A stretch of 64,000 nucleotides of DNA from NCBI GenBank assembly GCA_965208835.1, contig OZ242358.1, positions 2,240,001 through 2,304,000 on the forward strand, written 5' to 3'. Source of the stretch: Candidatus Latescibacterota bacterium (GTDB lineage Bacteria > Latescibacterota > UBA2968 > GCA-2709665). The translations under genes and the position numbers were made by a program. Positions 53,371 through 60,698 of the stretch are shown here, piece by piece; within the stretch, counting starts at the first letter, position 1, and each line of letters starts with the position of its first letter. The notes under the pieces are model-generated. The model was not told the DNA's origin. It saw nothing but the letters and a program-made list of their open reading frames with translations, and searched no databases.

Positions 53371-53532
53371 GAAGCTGTGTTGGAATTCCCGGTGCGTTCC
53401 CGAGCGCGAGCGAAAGCGTGTCGGTCCAGGCGGGCGAATTCGCCCGTATCTGTGGATAGGTGCGGATTCAACCAACACAGACCGACGCGTTTGCAGCCGC
53501 GCGAAGACCGCTGGGGATTTTCATACTGTTTC
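53371..53532. mobile_element. MITE family B copy (degenerate TIRs)
   Basis: GAAGCTGTG...CCCGAGCGCGAGCGAAA...TTTGCAGCCGCGCGAAGACCGCTGGGGATTTT...CTGTTTC, ending just before the dppA SD. Confidence 0.8.
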
Positions 53533-53547
53533 GGAGGGAGATCGTCA

Positions 53548-55110
53548 ATGTGGATGCGTTTTCTGCTTCTGTTCCTGGTGCCGGTACTCGTCGCCTGCGA
53601 GGCCGAACGCCCCAGGACCCTGGTGTTCGGCAGGGGCGGCGATACCGTGGGGCTGGATCCCGCGCTGGAGACCGATGGCGAATCATTCAAGGTCTGCGAC
53701 AATATATACGACAACCTTGTAACCTTCCAGGCGGAAAATACCGAGTTGGCGCCGGGTCTGGCGGAGTCCTGGACGGCATCGGACGACCTCAGAACGTGGA
53801 CGTTTAAACTCAGGCGGAACGTCGTGTTCCACGACGGCACTCCGTTCACCGCGGATGCGGTCGTGTTCTCGCTTGCCCGGCAGTTTAAGCCCGACCATCC
53901 CTTTCACCGCGTGGAGGGCGCGTTTCAGTATTGGAACAGTATGTCGATGAGCGAGATTGTCAGCGATGTGAAGAAAGTGGACGATCATACGGTTTCCATT
54001 GAGCTGACGCGTCCCAATGCGCCGTTTCTGTCGAATCTCGCGATGAATTTCTGCGGGATCGTGAGTCCCTCCGCCGTACGGAAACACGGCGCCGACTTTC
54101 CCCGGCACCCCGTTGGCACGGGTCCGTTTCGATTTGTGCAGTGGATAAAGGACGACCGCGTGGTGCTGGAGAGAAATCCCAGTTATTGGGGCGATGCGCC
54201 TCAGATCGACAGGCTGATCTTCAGAAGCATTCCGGAGAACTCCGTGCGTCTGATCGCGCTCATCCAGGGTTCGATAGACGGTATGGATCATCTGGTACCT
54301 GACTTTATCCCCAATATCAAAAAGCATCCGAGCCTTCGGCTTCTGACCCAGCCGGGAATGAATGTCGGGTACATGGCCATGAACATGGATCGCGCGCCGT
54401 TCCACCTTCTCAAGGTGCGAAGGGCGGTCAACCACGCCGTCAACAAACAGGCGCTGGTGGACAATCTGTATCAGGGTCTTGCGTTGCCGGCGGTCAACCC
54501 GATTCCACCGTCGATGTGGAGCTATCACGAAGGGATCGAAGGATACGGCTACGATCCGGATCGGGCCCGGGAGCTATTGGCCGAGGCCGGTTATGCGGAA
54601 GGATTCAAGACCACGCTGTGGGCCATGCCGGTGCCGCGTCCGTATATGCCTCAGCCCAGGAAGATCGCTCAGGCTATTCAGGCCGACCTGCAGGCCGTCG
54701 GAATCCAGGCCGAGATCGTGAGCTATGAATGGGGAACCTATCTGGACAAGGTTTCGAGAGGGCAGCACGATATGGCGCTCCTGGGCTGGACGGGCGACAA
54801 CGGCGACCCGGACAATTTCCTATACGTACTGCTCGATAAAAGCGCGACGCAGCAGCCCGCGAATAACATCGCGTTCTACCGCAGCGACGACCTGCACGAG
54901 GTGCTCGTGCGGGCGCAGCGGGAAGTGGACGCAGGCATTCGGACCGGGCTCTACCGGAAGGCGCAGGAGATCGTGTTCCAGGATGCGCCCTGGGTGCCGC
55001 TCGTGCACGCGGCGCAAACCGCCGCATTCAAGAAGACCGTGAGCGGCTTCACGCTTCATCCCACCGGAAGCAAGTGGTTCCAGAACGTGCGGATCGCCGA
55101 AACGGAGTGA
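53548..55110 (+). CDS. dppA: dipeptide ABC transporter substrate-binding lipoprotein
   Basis: Lipobox LVAC; LDPA, FHDGTPFTADAV, PVGTGPF, AMPVPRPY, GWTGDNGDPDNF. Confidence 0.9.
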   Translation: MWMRFLLLFLVPVLVACEAERPRTLVFGRGGDTVGLDPALETDGESFKVCDNIYDNLVTFQAENTELAPGLAESWTASDDLRTWTFKLRRNVVFHDGTPFTADAVVFSLARQFKPDHPFHRVEGAFQYWNSMSMSEIVSDVKKVDDHTVSIELTRPNAPFLSNLAMNFCGIVSPSAVRKHGADFPRHPVGTGPFRFVQWIKDDRVVLERNPSYWGDAPQIDRLIFRSIPENSVRLIALIQGSIDGMDHLVPDFIPNIKKHPSLRLLTQPGMNVGYMAMNMDRAPFHLLKVRRAVNHAVNKQALVDNLYQGLALPAVNPIPPSMWSYHEGIEGYGYDPDRARELLAEAGYAEGFKTTLWAMPVPRPYMPQPRKIAQAIQADLQAVGIQAEIVSYEWGTYLDKVSRGQHDMALLGWTGDNGDPDNFLYVLLDKSATQQPANNIAFYRSDDLHEVLVRAQREVDAGIRTGLYRKAQEIVFQDAPWVPLVHAAQTAAFKKTVSGFTLHPTGSKWFQNVRIAETE

Positions 55111-55168
55111 ACGCGCCGGTACGTCCGCATGGCGACTCCGTTCCGGAACCTGCGAGGCAATACGCGTG

Positions 55169-56182
55169 ATGGGCGTCTACATCCTGAAACGTCTGTTTCT
55201 TCTCTTCCCCATGCTGCTGGGAATCGTCGTCCTGGTTTTCCTGATGATTCATTTCGTGCCGGGCGATCCGGCGCAGGTGATGCTGGGCGAGCGGGCCAGC
55301 GCGGAGCAGGTGGCTGAGTTGCGCAGGCAACTGGGGCTGGATCAGGAGTTGCACGTTCAGCTCGGACTGTACCTGTGGGGACTTGTGCAGGGCGATCTGG
55401 GCCGTTCCTTCAAGTCCCACGCGAAGGTGTCGTCCGAGTTGCTGGCCAGGTTTCCCGCGACGCTTGAACTCACGTTGATCAGCATGTTGCTGGCCTGCGG
55501 GGTCGGGATCATTGCGGGCGTGGTATCGGCATCCCGCAAGGGAACGGTCATGGATTATCTTGGCATGACGGTTTCCCTCGCGGGACTGTCGATGCCGATC
55601 TTCTGGCTGGGCCTGATGGTCATTCTGGTGATGTCGGTCTTTCTTGGGCTATTCCCCGTGTCGGGGCGGCTCAGCACCCATCTCTTCATTCCCAGGGTGA
55701 CCGGACTCTATCTGATTGACAGTCTGCTGGCCGGGGACTTGAGGGCCTTTGTCGACGCCGTCTGGCATCTCGCGCTGCCCGGTCTTACGCTGGCCACGGT
55801 GCCGATGGCGGTGATCGCGCGGATGACGCGCTCCAGCCTCCTCGATGTACTCAAGGAAGATTACGTACGAACGGCGTGGGCGAAGGGACTTTCGGAACGG
55901 ATCGTCATCTTCCGGCACGCCCTGAAGAATGCGTTTATTCCAGTTTTGACAGTAATAAGCCTGCAGTTCGGGTTTCTGCTCGGAGGCGCCGTCATTACGG
56001 AGACGATCTTCGCCTGGCCCGGGGTGGGGCGGTGGCTGCTGCTGGCGGTCTATTCGAGGGACTTCAGGGCCGTTCAGGGCGGGGTGCTGCTGGTTGCGCT
56101 GATGTTTGCGCTGATCAATCTCATCGCGGACGTGATGTACGCGTGGCTGGATCCGCGCATCAGACACCGGGAAAATGCATGA
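55169..56182 (+). CDS. dppB: dipeptide ABC transporter permease
   Basis: PGDPA, RFPATLEL, SMPIFWLG, DYVRTAWAKG, LDPRI. Confidence 0.92.
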   Translation: MGVYILKRLFLLFPMLLGIVVLVFLMIHFVPGDPAQVMLGERASAEQVAELRRQLGLDQELHVQLGLYLWGLVQGDLGRSFKSHAKVSSELLARFPATLELTLISMLLACGVGIIAGVVSASRKGTVMDYLGMTVSLAGLSMPIFWLGLMVILVMSVFLGLFPVSGRLSTHLFIPRVTGLYLIDSLLAGDLRAFVDAVWHLALPGLTLATVPMAVIARMTRSSLLDVLKEDYVRTAWAKGLSERIVIFRHALKNAFIPVLTVISLQFGFLLGGAVITETIFAWPGVGRWLLLAVYSRDFRAVQGGVLLVALMFALINLIADVMYAWLDPRIRHRENA

Positions 56183-57081
56183 ACCGGTCATTCCATCCGG
56201 ACGGAGGAACGGGTGTTGGAGCCGCCGGATCACAGGTCCTGGCGGGCGCCGGCTGGGGCGGTCTGTTCTGGAAGCGGCTCCTGAAGAACCGGCTGGCGGC
56301 TGCGGGCGGCGTCCTGCTGCTGGGATTCCTGCTGCTCGCCATCGCGGCGCCCCTGGCAGCGCCGCAGGATCCCTTTGCTCAGAATCTGTACGAACGCCTC
56401 CAGCCGCCTTCGCTGGCGAATCCGTTCGGTACGGATGACTTCGGAAGAGATGTCCTGAGTCGCGTCATTCACGGCGCGCGGATTTCGCTGCGGGTGGGGG
56501 TTACCGCCGTGCTGATCGCGCTGGTCCTGGGCGTTCCGATCGGACTCGTCTCGGGGTACTGGGGCGGCGCGATGGATCAGGTGTTGATGCGGGCGATGGA
56601 CCTGATGCTCGCATTTCCCAGCATCCTCCTGGCCATCGCCATTGTTGCGATCCTGGGACCGGGATTGGAGAATGCGATGCTGGCGGTGGGAGTCGTCGCG
56701 GTGCCCCAGTACGCCCGACTGGTGCGGGCATCGGCGCTGTCCGTGCGTGGACAGGACTACGTTCACGCAATGCGTGCGCTTGGCGCGGGAGATTTCCATA
56801 TCCTGTTCTTTTCAGTTCTCCCGAACTGCCTGACGCCCCTGATCGTGCAGTCCACGCTGGGTCTGGCGACCGCCATTCTCGATGCTGCGGGCCTGAGCTT
56901 CCTTGGACTGGGCGCGCAGCCGCCCTTGCCGGAGTGGGGCGCCATGCTCACCGGCGGGCGGGAACTTGTTCTGCGGGCGCCGTGGGTATTGACGTTTCCG
57001 GGCGTGGCGATCTTCCTGACTGTATTGGCATTCAATCTGCTTGGAGATGGATTGCGCGACGCCCTGGATCCCAGGACCTGA
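56179..57081 (+). CDS. dppC: dipeptide ABC transporter permease
   Basis: GTDDFGRD, LSFLGLGAQPPLPEWG, NLLGDGLRDALDP. Confidence 0.92.
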   Translation: MNRSFHPDGGTGVGAAGSQVLAGAGWGGLFWKRLLKNRLAAAGGVLLLGFLLLAIAAPLAAPQDPFAQNLYERLQPPSLANPFGTDDFGRDVLSRVIHGARISLRVGVTAVLIALVLGVPIGLVSGYWGGAMDQVLMRAMDLMLAFPSILLAIAIVAILGPGLENAMLAVGVVAVPQYARLVRASALSVRGQDYVHAMRALGAGDFHILFFSVLPNCLTPLIVQSTLGLATAILDAAGLSFLGLGAQPPLPEWGAMLTGGRELVLRAPWVLTFPGVAIFLTVLAFNLLGDGLRDALDPRT

Positions 57082-57099
57082 CGTGGCTGGAGAAAGCCT

Positions 57100-57128
57100 T
57101 TGACTTCCGCATTCCTGTAGCGTATATT
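57100..57128 (+). promoter_or_regulatory. sigma70-type promoter of the candidate ncRNA
   Basis: TTGACT-17 nt-TATATT. Confidence 0.75.
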
Positions 57129-57155
57129 CGGCTTACACGGAAAGGAGGTGGTCAA

Positions 57156-57191
57156 ATGAGCGAAACGACCAGTGGAGGTGGCTGTAGTTAG
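57156..57191 (+). CDS. small ORF MSETTSGGGCS
   Basis: ATG 7 nt after GGAGG, within GAAAGGAGGTGGTC. Confidence 0.45.
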   Translation: MSETTSGGGCS

Positions 57192-57333
57192 GTGCGCTGC
57201 CGGGTGCGGGAGAACATCTCGTCTGGTAACGCGCCTGGCGAATCTAAGCAGCCATCGAAAGACAGGCGATCCGTCGTCCCGACGGGCCCCGGCGATTGCA
57301 GGGGCGCCGTGAGATGGAAGCCGTCTCAAAAGT

Positions 57334-57390
57334 TGCGCCGTGAGGAGATGTGGCCGGAGTACCGGCTCCCGAATCGCGGCGCATTTTTTT
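57334..57390 (+). terminator. intrinsic terminator-like compound hairpin
   Basis: TGCGCCGTGA pairs with TCGCGGCGCA, followed by TTTTTTT. Confidence 0.7.
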
Positions 57391-57409
57391 GTAAGGTAAG
57401 GGTTTGTGC

Positions 57410-57438
57410 TTGACAAAATCACGCTGGCTTTATATTTT
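57410..57438 (+). promoter_or_regulatory. rplM operon promoter
   Basis: TTGACA-17 nt-TATTTT. Confidence 0.65.
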
Positions 57439-57519
57439 TTGAGGCTTGACATTGCGTGGAATTGTCATGGAGAGGGGGTGAGTTCGAATTCGGCGTCAAT
57501 GTGGACGCCGTTCGGATTT

Positions 57520-57954
57520 ATGAATACGCCAAGCGCTAAAAAATCTGACGTCGAACGCAAGTGGTTTCTCGCTGATGCCGAGGGTAAGGTGCTGGGTCGT
57601 TTTGCGAGCGAGGTTGCCCGGATCCTGATGGGCAAACACAAACCGTATTATACGTCCCACGTGGATACCGGCGATCATGTCATCGTGGTCAACTCCGACA
57701 AGCTTATGGTCAAAGGCGCCAACAAACCCGATCAGAAGGTCTATACACGCTTCAGCGGATATCCTGGCGGCCTGAAGACCAAAACCCTGAAGCGAGCGCT
57801 CGAAACACAGCCTGAGTTTGTGCTGGAACATGCGATACGGGGAATGTTGCCACGCACGAAACTTGGGCGCAGAATGATGAAGAAGGTCCGAATTTACGCT
57901 GGATCCGATCATCCGCATGGGAGTCAGGTGCCTGAAGCGATCGACCTTGCCTGA
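57520..57954 (+). CDS. rplM: 50S ribosomal protein L13
   Basis: KWFLADA, VLGR, GKHKP, DTGDHVIVVN, SGYPGGLK, GMLP. Confidence 0.98.
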   Translation: MNTPSAKKSDVERKWFLADAEGKVLGRFASEVARILMGKHKPYYTSHVDTGDHVIVVNSDKLMVKGANKPDQKVYTRFSGYPGGLKTKTLKRALETQPEFVLEHAIRGMLPRTKLGRRMMKKVRIYAGSDHPHGSQVPEAIDLA

Positions 57955-57998: not shown

Positions 57999-58391
57999 TT
58001 GGCAGAGATCCTTGCTTCTGCCAGAGGCCGGCGCAAGTCGGCAACGGCAAACGTAAAGCTTTTTCCCGGATCCGGAGAAGTAACCATCAACGGCAGGCCG
58101 ATTCTGGATTATCTGAAGCGCGAGACGCTGGTGATGATCGTCGAGCAGCCGCTGGCGGTTACGGAAACGACCGGACAATTCAACATCGTCGCCAGCACCA
58201 AGGGCGGCGGTCTCAGCGGTCAGGCAGGGGCCGTTCGACTGGGTATCGCCCGCGGCCTGCTCGCCCTGAACGAAGACCTCAAGACGCCGCTGCGCGAGGC
58301 CGGGCTTTTAACCCGCGATGCGCGAGAGGTGGAGCGAAAGAAGCCGGGTCGCCCCGGGGCGCGCAAACGGTTCCAGTTTTCCAAACGTTAA
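57999..58391 (+). CDS. rpsI: 30S ribosomal protein S9
   Basis: GRRKSA, GGGLSGQAGA, LTRDAREVERKK, FQFSKR. Confidence 0.98.
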   Translation: MAEILASARGRRKSATANVKLFPGSGEVTINGRPILDYLKRETLVMIVEQPLAVTETTGQFNIVASTKGGGLSGQAGAVRLGIARGLLALNEDLKTPLREAGLLTRDAREVERKKPGRPGARKRFQFSKR

Positions 58392-58527: not shown

Positions 58528-58611
58528 GAAGCTGTATTGAAATTACTGGTGAGTTGCCGACCGGCGCCTTTGCAGCCGCGCGAAGACCGCTGGGGATTTT
58601 AAGACAGCTTC
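58528..58611. mobile_element. short MITE family B copy in the rpsB 5' UTR
   Basis: GAAGCTGTATTGAAATT ... GGATTTTAAGACAGCTTC. Confidence 0.85.
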
Positions 58612-58624
58612 TCAGGAGGATTGT

Positions 58625-59389
58625 ATGGCTGTTGTTGAAATGAAGGCCTTGCTGGAGGCCGGAGTCCACTTCGGGCACCAGACCCGCCGTTGGAACCCGA
58701 AGATGAGCAAGTTCATCTTTATCGAACGCAACGGCATCTACATCATCGATCTTCAGAAGACGCTGCGGCAGATTGAGGAAGCCTACCGCGTAATCAGCGA
58801 GGCCGTGGAACAGGGCGAATCGGTACTATTTGTGGGAACCAAAAAGCAGGCGAAAGACGTCATTCTTCAAGAAGCGAAGCGCTGCGAGATGTTTCACGTA
58901 ACCGAACGTTGGCTTGGGGGCATGCTCACGAATTACCAGACGATTCGCCAGAGCATTCGGCGCCTCGAAACCCTCGACAAGATGGGCGCGGACGGGACCT
59001 ACGAGAAGTTGACGAAAAAAGAGGTATTGCGGCTGGAGCGCGAGCGTGAGAAACTGGAGAGGTCCCTGAGCGGTATCCGGGATATGGGCCGTCTGCCCGG
59101 GCTGGTATTCGTAGTAGACATAAAGAAGGAAAAGATCGCCGTTCACGAAGCGAGGCGTCTCAATATACCGGTTGTGGCCATTGTCGACACCAATTGCAAT
59201 CCGGACGACGTCGACTATCCGATTCCCGGTAACGACGACGCGATCCGGTCCATCGGACTCATTACCCGCCTGGTCGCCGATGGGGTGCTGCACGGGCAGA
59301 AGATTGGGCGGGAAGGACCCGACCGGACGGAAGAGGAACCCCAGATGCTTGGCCCGGAAATTACTGAGATAACCGAAGTCAATGAATGA
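58625..59389 (+). CDS. rpsB: 30S ribosomal protein S2
   Basis: [35 protein letters not shown]. Confidence 0.98.
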
Positions 59390-59435: not shown

Positions 59436-60035
59436 ATGGCAATTTCTGCGAAGATGGTTCAGGAACTACGGTCAAAGACCAACGTGGGGATGATGGATTG
59501 CAAGAAGGCCCTCGTCGAGAGTGGCGGGGACATGGAGAAAGCTATTGAGCTTCTGCGGACGCGCGGCGTCGCCAAGGCGGAAGACCGTGCGCACAAGACG
59601 GCGAAAGAGGGGTTGATTACATCTTACATTCACACCGGCAGCAAGCTCGGTGTGATGCTGGAAGTCAACAGCGAGACTGATTTCGTCGCCCGTACGGATC
59701 AGTTCCAGACGTTTGCCAGGGACCTCGCAATGCACATCGCCGCCAGCGCGCCGATCGCCGTGAGCCGGGATCAACTGGATGAAGCGGGTATAGAGCGGGA
59801 ACGCAGGATCTTCAGGCAGCAGGCGCTGGATGAGGGCAAACCCGAGCGGGTTCTCGATCGGATCGTGGACGGACGTCTAGAGAAGTATTATCAGGATGTA
59901 TGCCTGATGGAACAGCCCTTTGTTAAGGATCCGGACAAGACCGTCAGAGACCTGTTGATGGATCTGATCGCACAGTGCGGTGAGAATGTGACCGTCAGAA
60001 GGTTCGAGCGGTTTGTCTTGGGAGAGGAGAGCTGA
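59436..60035 (+). CDS. tsf: elongation factor Ts (short form)
   Basis: GMMDCKKAL, EVNSETDFVA, MHIAA, QPFVKD. Confidence 0.97.
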   Translation: MAISAKMVQELRSKTNVGMMDCKKALVESGGDMEKAIELLRTRGVAKAEDRAHKTAKEGLITSYIHTGSKLGVMLEVNSETDFVARTDQFQTFARDLAMHIAASAPIAVSRDQLDEAGIERERRIFRQQALDEGKPERVLDRIVDGRLEKYYQDVCLMEQPFVKDPDKTVRDLLMDLIAQCGENVTVRRFERFVLGEES

Positions 60036-60140
60036 GTGCGTCAAATGCCGGCGCGATAAACCAGACCGGCCAGCCACGGGGCTCAGGTTCGGAATCTCCC
60101 TATCAGACGACTTCCGTTTATTTGTTAAGGGACGAAGCAG

Positions 60141-60698
60141 ATGGTCGACGAGATTATTTCAGAGACCAGGCAGTCGATGGCGAAAGCCGTTGAAGCGTTC
60201 CAGCACGAAATGGGAACGGTTCGTACGGGGCGTGCAAACACGGCTTTGCTGGACAATATCCGTGCTGAATATTACGGTACGCAGGTGCCGTTGAACCAGG
60301 TCGCGACCATTGGCGTACCGGAGCCGAGGTTGATCGTACTTCAGCCGTGGGACAAGAGCGCGATTCCGGCAATCGAAAAGGCCATCCAGACGTCGAATCT
60401 GGGTCTGACGCCGTCCAGCGACGGGACCGTCATCCGCCTGCCGATACCCCATCTGACGGAGGAGCGCCGCACGGAACTCGTGCGTGTGGTTCGGCAGATG
60501 GCGGAAGACAGCAAGGTCTCTGTAAGGAACGCACGTCGGGACGCCAACGAGATGTTGAAAGACGGCCAGAAAGAGGGCGAGATACCTGAAGACGAATCCA
60601 GGAAGGGGCAGGATCAGGTGCAGAAGCTGACCGACGACTTCGTGGCGGAAATCGACGAGCTGCTGGTGCGGAAGGAAGAGGAGATTATGGAGGTCTGA
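60141..60698 (+). CDS. frr: ribosome recycling factor
   Basis: VRTGRA, YYG, PLNQVA, LTEERR, VRNARRD. Confidence 0.97.
   Translation: MVDEIISETRQSMAKAVEAFQHEMGTVRTGRANTALLDNIRAEYYGTQVPLNQVATIGVPEPRLIVLQPWDKSAIPAIEKAIQTSNLGLTPSSDGTVIRLPIPHLTEERRTELVRVVRQMAEDSKVSVRNARRDANEMLKDGQKEGEIPEDESRKGQDQVQKLTDDFVAEIDELLVRKEEEIMEV

Follow-up and report, generated by a model that had tools for sequence, protein, structure and literature searches.

The DNA analysed here, a window of 64,000 nucleotides from a Candidatus Latescibacterota bacterium, carries on its forward strand, at positions 57100-57390 and ahead of rplM-rpsI, a small transcription unit whose features are collected in Table 1. The unit has a promoter with 10 of 12 consensus matches in a consensus scan, and a TTGACn-16/18-TAnnnT promoter is present at the equivalent place in all 40 related loci. 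The transcript predicted from this promoter is about 256 nt long, and ACAC or a near variant stands directly 5' of the Shine-Dalgarno (SD) sequence in most aligned cores; the M. smegmatis homologue is described, in the available part of its published account, as beginning with an A. The unit closes with a branched intrinsic terminator, P5, which is backed by alignment folding and by pair counts, with changes on both sides in 5 of the 10 basal-helix pairs. A third conserved SD-like element, GGAGATG (57344-57350), lies within the internal loop of P5, and the terminator is absent from the consensus scan list because its stem is branched. Beyond this terminator lies a separate promoter for rplM-rpsI, which marks the boundary of the unit and is conserved in all 37 loci that have rplM downstream. 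A sequence-only reading of the same DNA had proposed an own promoter, an own terminator and a separate rplM promoter, and all three stand; the locus is thus supported as a stand-alone transcription unit that is more than an rplM leader.

Table 1. Features of the transcription unit and its downstream boundary (positions in the window).
Feature	Position	Strand	Details
sRNA promoter	57100..57128	+	-35 TTGACT 57100-57105, 17-nt spacer, -10 TATATT 57123-57128; consensus scan
Predicted 5' end ACAC	57135..57138	+	7 nt past the -10 hexamer; start at an A inferred
SD#1, extended Shine-Dalgarno	57139..57153	+	complementary to the entire 16S rRNA 3' tail
Hairpin P1	57147..57173	+	57149-57153 with 57167-57171, plus G-U pair 57147/57173; start codon in loop
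Mini-ORF MSETTSGGGCS	57156..57191	+	11 codons plus TAG
SD#2, second SD-like element GGAGGTGG	57174..57181	+	inside the ORF; ends 10 nt before the stop codon
Helix P2	57177..57256	+	57177-57185 with 57248-57256; encloses P3 and the conserved single-stranded junction
Hairpin P3	57193..57240	+	57193-57208 with 57230-57240; fold and alignment
Unpaired junction GAATCTAA between P3 and P2	57240..57247	+	conserved; family consensus G-A-A-T-C-C-like
Domain P4	57260..57326	+	57260-57285 with 57307-57326; specific to this Latescibacterota order
Branched intrinsic terminator P5 and T7	57335..57390	+	stem 57335-57357 with 57362-57382; T7 57384-57390
rplM-rpsI promoter, outside the sRNA	57410..57438	+	TTGACA 57410, TATTTT 57433; consensus scan

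Contigs assembled from RNA libraries (two runs of one sponge metatranscriptome study) cover positions 57150-57326 and 57145-57354 with 4-5 differences and, as assemblies from a single study in which DNA carry-over is possible, show neither the ends, the strand nor the level of a transcript. No such contig lies on 56000-57110 or bridges 57354-57432, an absence that proves nothing about silence of the upstream gene or about transcript ends.

The RNA is predicted to be highly structured, with a minimum free energy of -120.5 kcal/mol (z = -3.87) that none of 200 shuffled sequences attained. The whole structure comprises 58 pairs, for which 98% of alignment cells are paired compared with 33-49% when the partner strand is slid, and 19 pairs are altered on both sides versus at most 6 when slid, much of the covariation in alignment A2 being one split between two families. 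P1 is paired in 100% of cells across 30 sequences and in 93% across 98 sequences from many phyla. For P2 the value is 93%, versus 25-56% with a slid partner, and reaches 99.6% in alignment A2, with G-C, G-U and A-U pairs at one position and U-A, C-G, U-G, G-C and A-U at the next outer pair; within this helix SD#2 is sequestered by an anti-SD-like strand. In the enclosed junction, conservation at A57241 and C57244 is 90% or more among the 98 sequences from many phyla, and P3 appears extended in the single-sequence fold, where it takes in the stop codon. P4, in which 8 of 15 pairs are altered on both sides between the two families, is missing in the Actinomycetota versions, where the terminator follows directly after P2. 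The low z-score and the compensatory changes in P4 and in the terminator bear out the earlier view of a structured RNA, although its local hairpins survive only in part: the segments 57271-57285 and 57311-57327 turned out to be the two sides of the long-range domain P4, and the hairpin at 57353-57366 exists as the tip of the terminator, not as a separate element.

At gathering score, no Rfam family matched anywhere in the window. An E-value-mode Rfam scan of 801 bases gave Ms_IGR-5 (RF02471) at 27.6 bits (E = 2.8e-4), below its cut-off of 45, with a cmscan alignment that spans the full model (positions 1-184), and a whole-genome search with RF02471 returned the same 27.6 bits, the gathering score not being reached. 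In alignment A1 the window RNA aligns with 60 or more actinobacterial cores, with P1 and P2 93% paired. Loci retrieved by motif score 185, 126, 86 and 85 bits against RF02471 in Actinomycetota, 49.6 in Blastocatellia and 48.8 in Acidimicrobiales; the gathering score is passed by 6 of the 14 loci scanned and failed by 8, and a relative from family f2 (L097) is also under it. The two RNAs share the same order of blocks, namely 5' ACAC, extended SD, P1 with the start codon, GAGGTGGCTG and a stop at the base of P3, then a G-G-C-G-A-A-T-C junction, a CAGyCAyC strand and the terminator, and both are stand-alone and single-copy where checked, in genome G000 and in five other genomes with one copy each in a model search. 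They differ in host, which is here Candidatus Latescibacterota and not Actinomycetota, and in the additional 3' domain P4, the branched terminator and the adjoining rplM of the window RNA; moreover, a one-base insertion ahead of SD#2 and a one-base deletion behind it place the ORF in a different frame from that of Ms_IGR-5. On these comparisons we take the window RNA to be a distant, sub-threshold and divergent relative of the Ms_IGR-5 lineage, not an orphan. The original statement that the layout does not fit tmRNA, SRP, RNase P or familiar riboswitches holds insofar as neither an Rfam gathering match nor a tmRNA was found, and gives way to the resemblance to Ms_IGR-5.

Ms_IGR-5, which is IGR-5 or ncMSMEG15794c of Mycobacterium smegmatis and lies there between MSMEG_5794 and MSMEG_5795, has been termed 'validated but yet uncharacterized' (bioRxiv 10.1101/2021.12.14.472595); the nearest family is a named one and, in the available portions of the sources, not a functionally characterised one, so that the resemblance does not amount to the match with a characterised Rfam family by which the sequence-only reading would have been refuted. 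The article text searched gave no function for Ms_IGR-5/IGR-5 and no report outside Actinobacteria, and the available text of PMC4109619 contains no mention of it. According to the accessible parts of the respective reports, however, the MS_IGR-5 homologues of M. abscessus and M. smegmatis carry ribosome footprints (PMC4974804), and the Streptomyces homologue is a discrete sRNA transcription unit (PMC8780764, PMC8079986). The Rv0813c 5' UTR contains a small ORF that encodes a transmembrane domain; as far as its description is available (PMC11133741), this is a different ORF, and it was judged unrelated.

Other candidates were set aside. The weak E-value-mode matches to Scr1601 (18.7 of 100 bits) and CC2171 (13.4 of 75 bits) were judged chance. 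A tmRNA had no Rfam match, and ARAGORN found 0 tRNA or tmRNA genes in the window. Identity of Ms_IGR-5 with the raiA-motif locus was rejected, as neither raiA-type nor comFC-type neighbours and no Rfam raiA match were seen. As a side observation, RF02471 gives sub-cut-off scores in Caulobacter and Thermus control genomes.

The distribution of the RNA was drawn from 120 loci, 40 derived by BLAST and 80 by a pattern that fixed SD#1 and SD#2, so that the invariance of both elements in these 80 is by construction and the unbiased set consists of the 40 BLAST-derived and 14 model-derived loci. The RNA occurs in 40 of 41 genomes of two Latescibacterota families, between which its first 130 nt are 83-85% identical and the L13 protein about 72%; roughly half of the genomes sampled from two phyla carry it, and the core motif appears in records labelled with at least ten phyla. 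Among the 80 pattern-derived loci, 68 are labelled Actinomycetota and 2 Latescibacterota. In the neighbourhoods examined, no gene neighbour common to all phyla was found. Four long ORFs across the region (a minus-strand frame of 229 aa, one of 73 aa and two of 46 aa) have no credible Pfam match (best E = 0.088), and the relatives differ by indels of 1, 2, 4 and 5 bases, which speaks against a coding role of the region.

In 37 of the 40 related loci, rplM begins 335-554 nt past the start of the aligned RNA stretch (57130 in L001). This proximity, an RNA-library contig that starts at 57432, upstream of the predicted start of the second promoter, and the succession of mini-ORF and terminator, which is the layout of leader-peptide attenuators, would be in line with a cis-acting leader or attenuator of rplM-rpsI-rpsB-tsf-frr, in which the terminator at 57335-57390 is gated either by translation of the mini-ORF or by bound L13 or S9. 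We regard this as very unlikely, because the consensus promoter between terminator and rplM travels with rplM past insertions: where 60-160 extra bases separate the RNA from rplM (L002-L005), the promoter is still about 111 nt upstream of rplM. In addition, L039 and L040 carry the RNA with no rplM within 2.5 kb downstream (L038 stops at the end of its contig), and rplM follows in only 2 of the 80 pattern-derived loci, both labelled Latescibacterota. In mycobacteria the gene next to the RNA lies on the opposite strand, and other phyla have no co-directional operon after it. None of the Rfam ribosomal-protein leaders, including the L13 leader, matched at gathering score or at E up to 10. For a leader-peptide attenuator the picture is mixed, with ORF and terminator present and the terminator predicted to form even when 57139-57206 is held single-stranded. 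The resemblance to rplM leaders such as the Rfam L13 leader (L13 is autoregulated in E. coli) lies in the placement of the RNA just ahead of rplM-rpsI in this lineage, whereas a terminator and then a conserved promoter precede rplM here and other phyla carry the RNA elsewhere in the genome.

The conserved 5' portion of the RNA points to the ribosome. Against the 16S 3' end of the same genome (L192:1501-1516), SD#1 forms 15 contiguous pairs (13 Watson-Crick, 2 G-U), with a predicted duplex energy of -25.9 kcal/mol versus -11.6 kcal/mol for an ordinary AAAGGAGG site, which substantiates the very strong SD noticed at the transcript start. Runs of 15 nt against the 16S tail occur at only 3 sites in 10.36 million positions on both strands, and SD#1 has the most Watson-Crick pairs among them; the sole 16-nt run in the genome falls on the complementary strand of the 16S gene, and barring that strand SD#1 is the best anti-SD complement in 5.18 Mb. 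It is unchanged in all 40 Latescibacterota loci found by BLAST. An SD of such strength is expected to delay the ribosome in leaving the start site, and would fit a ribosome trap and, equally, a poorly translated ORF.

The ORF that follows is conserved in its frame. An in-frame ATG, GTG or TTG ORF that begins in the P1 loop and ends at the conserved stop is found in 107 of 112 distinct cores, compared with 12.2 expected from loop shuffles, in agreement with the 11-codon ORF first read from the sequence; the remaining 5 cores have an in-frame CTG, and wherever an NTG follows the SD, the first one is in frame (107 of 107 cores). The frame is retained even though the stretch from SD to SD#2 varies from 20 to 33 nt, and across the shared core the ORF measures 10-15 codons, with a distance from GGCTG to the stop of 4 or 5 nt in all 107 cores with an ATG, GTG or TTG in-frame ORF. 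SD#2 is invariant in alignments A1 and A2 (by construction for the 80 pattern-derived loci). Model-found variants from three further Latescibacterota families (f3, f4 and f8) likewise retain the SD, a P1 loop that contains the start codon and an ORF of 10-15 codons, and the 3' strand of their P2 is openly anti-SD-like. A GTG or ATG always stands directly after the mini-ORF stop, the length of the resulting second ORF not being conserved.

A frame kept so widely could also mean that the RNA is an mRNA made for its 11-residue peptide, be it a micropeptide, a pheromone or a precursor peptide, and the conserved C-terminal half of the Actinomycetota peptide (xTREVAxx) and the Cys-rich 15-mer encoded in family f8 would fit such a role. 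However, most phyla decode the invariant GAGGTGGCTG as E-V-A, whereas Latescibacterota and Eisenbacteria decode it as G-G-G-C and Planctomycetota as R-W-L, and the reading of one nucleotide core in three frames, with unrelated peptides as the result, argues that translation itself is conserved and not the peptide. Moreover, the TSGGGC codons are free of synonymous change in 39 of 40 relatives (the exception, L039, has ACT for ACC), a scarcity that indicates constraint on the RNA, about 200 nt of covarying structure lie 3' of the ORF, and the neighbourhoods share no modifying-enzyme or export genes. We therefore hold the precursor or micropeptide role offered by the sequence-only reading to be highly doubtful, while in Actinomycetota a peptide function is conceivable. 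What selection appears to preserve is ribosome loading and transit rather than a peptide.

A trans-acting base-pairing sRNA, with the junction at 57240-57247 or a loop as its seed and the mini-ORF as a protective device or by-product, would account for a single-copy, stand-alone gene with a terminator and for the unpaired, conserved A-A-T-C motif, and the family was reportedly first detected, judging from paper titles, through co-purification with heterologous Hfq. We nevertheless think this explanation unlikely, as a frame kept over variable loop lengths is hard to explain without translation, and as the most conserved bases are SD-like, whereas most sRNA seeds are anti-SD-like. That promoter-like, SD-like and hairpin sequences met by chance in an intergenic spacer has practically no probability left: nothing speaks for it beyond how often GC-rich DNA contains such motifs in general, and conservation, covariation and the ORF statistics already refute it.

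Taken together, we lean somewhat towards an independent sRNA gene that belongs to the Ms_IGR-5 lineage as a divergent member and acts by engaging the ribosome; the proposal of a ribosome-engaging non-coding RNA is the one that best fits the anatomy, with its exceptional SD and conserved mini-ORF, whereas the hibernation or decoy function named along with it is conjecture. The strong sigma-70-type promoter would yield an RNA of about 256 nt that starts 4-5 nt before the SD, and complementarity and conservation suggest that this SD pairs over 14-15 bp with the entire single-stranded 16S 3' tail. Since the P1 loop contains the start codon and the 5' arm of P1 is the end of the SD, a bound 30S subunit would have to open P1. 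The ribosome would then read the 11-codon frame, a putative translation suggested by the conservation of the frame, and in doing so would unzip P2 and free SD#2 from the anti-SD-like strand. With the stop codon in the A site, SD#2 would lie 7-8 nt upstream of the P-site codon, which is the usual SD-to-start spacing, so that the anti-SD could re-pair there. The most likely output would be a ribosome-directed role, either in titrating or holding 30S or 70S or, through a change of shape with the supply of free ribosomes, in exposing the junction and the 3' domains, this last step being a guess. A bolder and rather unlikely version is a cross-phylum ribosome decoy that would capture ribosomes via the 16S tail, pass them through the mini-ORF, hand the anti-SD to SD#2 at termination and hold or recycle them on the RNA.

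To our knowledge, few non-coding RNAs are common to many bacterial phyla, and those that are (tmRNA, RNase P, SRP, 6S) are core machinery or global regulators. By our sequence comparisons, what was known is the Ms_IGR-5 family, its function uncharacterised, and what appears new is the divergent variant and the occurrence beyond Actinomycetota, such that an sRNA catalogued as 'Actinobacteria sRNA' is now seen in records labelled with at least ten phyla. Its conserved features converge on the ribosome: the strongest anti-SD complement, a mini-ORF kept in frame and an SD locked by an anti-SD mimic. The homologues in M. smegmatis and Streptomyces make the ribosome hypothesis directly testable and, should the RNA not be a ribosome regulator, it would still be an unannotated conserved gene for which the Rfam model merits widening.

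Among known systems, SgrS/SgrT, RNAIII and SR1 are dual-function sRNAs that encode defined peptides. Together with rnTrpL of Sinorhizobium, described in the available part of its report as a leader-peptide attenuator RNA that also acts in trans (PMC6614838), they share with the window RNA a small, terminated transcript with a short ORF close to its 5' end and an interlocking of translation and structure, but the window RNA has no regulatory codon run, no conserved peptide and apparently no downstream operon that it controls. The likeness to 6S, Ms1 and CsrB lies in the possible mode of action only. These RNAs are abundant and stand-alone, 6S and Ms1 sequestering RNA polymerase and CsrB-type RNAs serving as protein sponges; a sponge role would likewise require the window RNA to be abundant. 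There is no relation in sequence or structure (no Rfam match), and the window RNA is apparently translated, whereas these decoys are not. In its possible action, however, an mRNA start site would be offered to the ribosome much as 6S offers an open promoter to RNA polymerase. As a ribosome-directed regulator, the RNA would fill a gap beside the RNA-polymerase-directed 6S and Ms1 and, if the decoy were true, would be the ribosome counterpart of 6S and Ms1 and of CsrB with its target CsrA, and would adjust translational capacity or how translation is shared between SD-led and leaderless mRNAs.

Our analyses show that the small RNA (sRNA) is an independent, conserved and structured RNA with maximal complementarity to the 16S rRNA tail. 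Consensus scanning recovered the sigma-70-type promoter proposed in the sequence-only reading (TTGACT at 57100, a 17-nt spacer and TATATT at 57123) together with the proposed second promoter at 57410/57433, and the RNA 3' end carries the terminator suggested there, whose hairpin is long and branched and precedes seven T. Each of the 40 loci has a TTGACn-16/18-TAnnnT promoter 5' of the RNA, and all 37 loci with rplM have a second promoter between terminator and rplM; where 60-160 extra bases occur (four loci), this second promoter stays beside rplM. Because promoters are conserved on both sides and the second one travels with rplM, the sRNA unit is separate from rplM, which upholds the earlier view of a stand-alone unit. 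That the RNA acts as a cis leader of rplM, which lies downstream in 37 of 40 Latescibacterota loci (locus L038 stops at a contig end; L039 and L040 are without rplM within 2.5 kb) and in 0 of the remaining 78 loci, we consider very unlikely. The rplM 5' UTR (57469-57519) has features of its own: starting at 57469, about 37 nt 5' of the rplM ATG at 57520, 13 successive bases complement the 16S tail, with a further in-frame ATG at 57499 and, between run and start codon, an inverted repeat (about 57492-57510) that could join the SD to the start codon or serve as an L13-responsive leader.

The unit has a peptide ABC-transporter operon upstream and a series of translation genes downstream (table); in the latter, frr lies directly 3' of tsf with no copy of pyrH in between (60035-60141); pyrH is usually found between these two genes. 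A 57-60-nt repeat occupies 58556-58612 between rpsI and rpsB, apparently with a related copy near 53480. It has at least 40 matches at 92-100% identity in the genome (40 scored of 160 candidates), and in DNA runs its summed depth is about 8000, against about 25 to either side, where many different sequences adjoin it. The repeat resembles a REP or MITE element.

Features of the sRNA unit and its neighbourhood (window coordinates)
Feature	Position	Basis or remark
SBP_bac_5 binding protein	53545-55110	Pfam; transporter operon upstream of sRNA
Permease 1 (Opp/Dpp-type)	55166-56182	Pfam; transporter operon
Permease 2 (Opp/Dpp-type)	about 56185-57081	Pfam; transporter operon
sRNA unit	57100-57390	plus strand
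SD#1	57139-57153	
P1	57147-57173	
Mini-ORF	57156-57191	
SD#2	57174-57181	
P2	57177-57185/57248-57256	
P3	57193-57240	
P4	57260-57326	
P5	57335-57390	terminator
L13 (rplM)	57520-57954	Pfam
S9 (rpsI)	57999-58391	Pfam
S2 (rpsB)	58625-59389	Pfam
EF-Ts (tsf)	59436-60035	Pfam
RRF (frr)	60141-60698	Pfam

Among the compared loci, no neighbour gene is common to all phyla. The mycobacterial RNA is flanked by an aminotransferase class IV gene and an oppositely oriented THAP4-type haem-binding gene, matching the position between MSMEG_5794 and MSMEG_5795 reported for M. smegmatis IGR-5 in a preprint (bioRxiv 10.1101/2021.12.14.472595). Two phyla have peptide-uptake genes beside the RNA: such genes occur in the window (53545-57081) and in Blastocatellia (L093, L114), whose OPT oligopeptide transporter is located about 400 nt 3' of the RNA; this may be coincidence. 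Further upstream in Blastocatellia, there are ORFs that group with the unannotated ORF immediately 5' of the RNA in locus L069. L054, from a MAG labelled Heliobacteriaceae, and L119, labelled Blastocatellia, share a very similar RNA 5' part and the same upstream ORF, which matches no Pfam family; this likeness suggests a mislabelled bin or horizontal transfer.

Second, the element is widely conserved and folds stably. BLAST found it in 40 of 41 related genomes (20 of 21 scored in family f1 besides the window's own genome, 19 of 19 in f2), the single miss being a 92%-complete assembly, and over the first 130 nt f1 and f2 share 83-85% identity versus only about 72% for the adjoining L13 protein. 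A covariance model built from 98 cores, the 5' part shared across phyla, matched 81 of the 151 genomes taken from across the window's phylum (f1 17/18, f2 30/30, f3 29/64, f4 2/2, f8 2/5) and had no match in the nine other families sampled, a miss in a sampled genome meaning 'not found' rather than 'absent'. It also matched 73 of the 151 genomes drawn from the phylum to which a Mycolicibacterium carrier belongs, a tally that takes in six genomes flagged unpublished (G159, G176, G206, G240, G246 and G278). The window's genome and each of five others checked carry one copy. The claim of a structured RNA held: the fold has z = -3.87, with 0 of 200 shuffles folding equally well, and 30 distinct full-length sequences, folded as an alignment, yield five helical elements (P1-P5) with 58 pairs. 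Paired cells amount to 98% versus 33-49% after sliding partner columns, and 19 pairs change on both sides versus at most 6 in slid controls and 13.3 in shuffles, pairs being scored on a structure derived from the same alignment and many double changes reflecting one split between two families. A third SD-like motif, GGAGATG (57344-57350), is kept in the terminator internal loop of both Latescibacterota families, within a stem that covaries.

In one sponge metatranscriptome study, two runs from RNA libraries yielded contigs that cover 57150-57326 and 57145-57354 (4-5 differences), and separate contigs on rplM; such contigs indicate presence in an RNA library and say nothing on strand, level or the ends of the transcript. 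Contigs of a second, f2-like relative in DNA runs X3 and X7 match only the conserved 5' core (57140-57197) and bear f2-type promoter sequence at their loose ends; therefore, two RNA-carrying Latescibacterota lineages co-occur in those samples. Published work reports that homologues were validated by RNA-seq in S. lividans (PMC8079986), form a discrete transcription unit for an sRNA in S. avermitilis (PMC8780764) and bear ribosome footprints in both M. abscessus and M. smegmatis (PMC4974804); a preprint describes NAD capping with a start at A for an RNA termed 'validated but yet uncharacterized' (bioRxiv 10.1101/2021.12.14.472595).

Third, what is conserved in the RNA points to the ribosome. 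All 15 bases of SD#1 pair contiguously with the 16S 3' end of the same genome (L192:1501-1516, inside a 1506-bit SSU match), with a predicted duplex energy of -25.9 kcal/mol versus -11.6 for an ordinary site. Runs of 15 bases occur at three sites on both strands of the 5.18-Mb genome, SD#1 being the richest in Watson-Crick pairs, and the sole 16-base run comes from the opposite strand of the 16S gene. SD#2, an invariant GAGGTGGCTG, lies within the ORF and makes up the 5' strand of P2; both SDs were fixed by the search pattern in 80 loci, the unbiased set being 40 BLAST-derived loci plus model-derived variants. The P2 partner strand is CAGyCAyC, preceded directly 5' by a conserved unpaired G-A-A-T-C-C-like junction. 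In 98 sequences P2 is paired at 93% versus 25-56% when slid, with several pair types at three positions. Model-derived variants (f3, f4, f8) keep the SD, the P1-loop start codon and a 10-15-codon ORF, and their P2 3' strand is a near copy of the anti-SD. An anti-SD-like strand holds the internal SD.

The proposed mini-ORF is present, with its start codon in the P1 loop. An ordinary base-pairing sRNA with an incidental ORF seems quite unlikely: 107 of 112 distinct cores carry an in-frame ATG, GTG or TTG in this loop, where loop shuffling predicts 12.2, and the SD-to-SD#2 stretch takes nine lengths (20-33 nt). In those 107 cores the start codon lies 7-14 nt past AAGGAGG, the stop codon 4 or 5 nt past GGCTG, and the first NTG past the SD is always the in-frame one; the five exceptions carry CTG at the start position (four labelled Acidimicrobiia-type, one only Actinomycetota). 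TAG ends the ORF in 105 cores; four use TAA and three TGA. An ORF so widely kept might point to a peptide gene, which we hold to be highly doubtful: GAGGTGGCTG reads E-V-A in most phyla, G-G-G-C in Latescibacterota and Eisenbacteria and R-W-L in Planctomycetota, and the peptide is not conserved across phyla. The alignments show the ORF to be under selection for frame and not for peptide. In all 30 Latescibacterota sequences a GTG or ATG directly follows the stop TAG (57189-57194; alignment A2 columns 59-65), making termination and re-initiation conceivable; the frame past the stop has 73 codons in the window, and this start codon was not present in the cores compared from other phyla.

We give slightly better than an even chance to a model in which the RNA engages ribosomes. 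A 30S subunit would bind SD#1 and open P1, and the ribosome would translate the 11 codons, having to melt P2. Once the stop codon occupied the A site, SD#2 would lie 7-8 nt upstream of the P-site codon; because this is the normal SD-to-start spacing, the anti-SD could re-pair with SD#2 at termination. Our guess is that the RNA holds or titrates ribosomes, or reports ribosome availability via a change of fold; a full decoy function is unlikely.

Finally, the RNA does have a named relative. No Rfam family reached its gathering score in the window; in a permissive scan, 57135-57274 aligned to the whole of Ms_IGR-5 (RF02471), an actinobacterial sRNA family, at 27.6 bits (E = 2.8e-4). Scanning a one-genome-per-species collection for two blocks common to the window and the RF02471 consensus yielded at least 120 stretches, 80 of which were made into loci. 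By record title, the listed matches among these 80 include at least 68 Actinomycetota in the wide sense (Mycobacterium, Micromonospora, Nocardioides, Acidimicrobiales and others), at least four Blastocatellia, at least two each from Latescibacterota and Planctomycetota/Planctomycetia, and at least one each from Heliobacteriaceae, Syntrophobacter, Eisenbacteria, Zixiibacteriota and Sumerlaeota. Of 14 scanned loci, 6 passed the RF02471 gathering score: four from actinobacteria scored 85-185 bits, one from Acidimicrobiales 48.8 and one from Blastocatellia 49.6. The remaining eight failed. Because intermediate loci with the shared motif pass in part, the window RNA is the far end of a continuous family of which Rfam captures only part. 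Set against the actinobacterial form, the RNA in the window gains one base ahead of SD#2 and loses one past it, so that the frame is restored at the stop codon. Since a named relative exists, the RNA is less exotic than first supposed, and the family is a problem within experimental reach. Ms_IGR-5 is known by name only; what is new is its presence far outside Actinomycetota, the frame-conserved mini-ORF with a non-conserved peptide, the full-tail SD and the SD#2/anti-SD-mimic helix, and the Latescibacterota-specific 3' domain and linkage to rplM.
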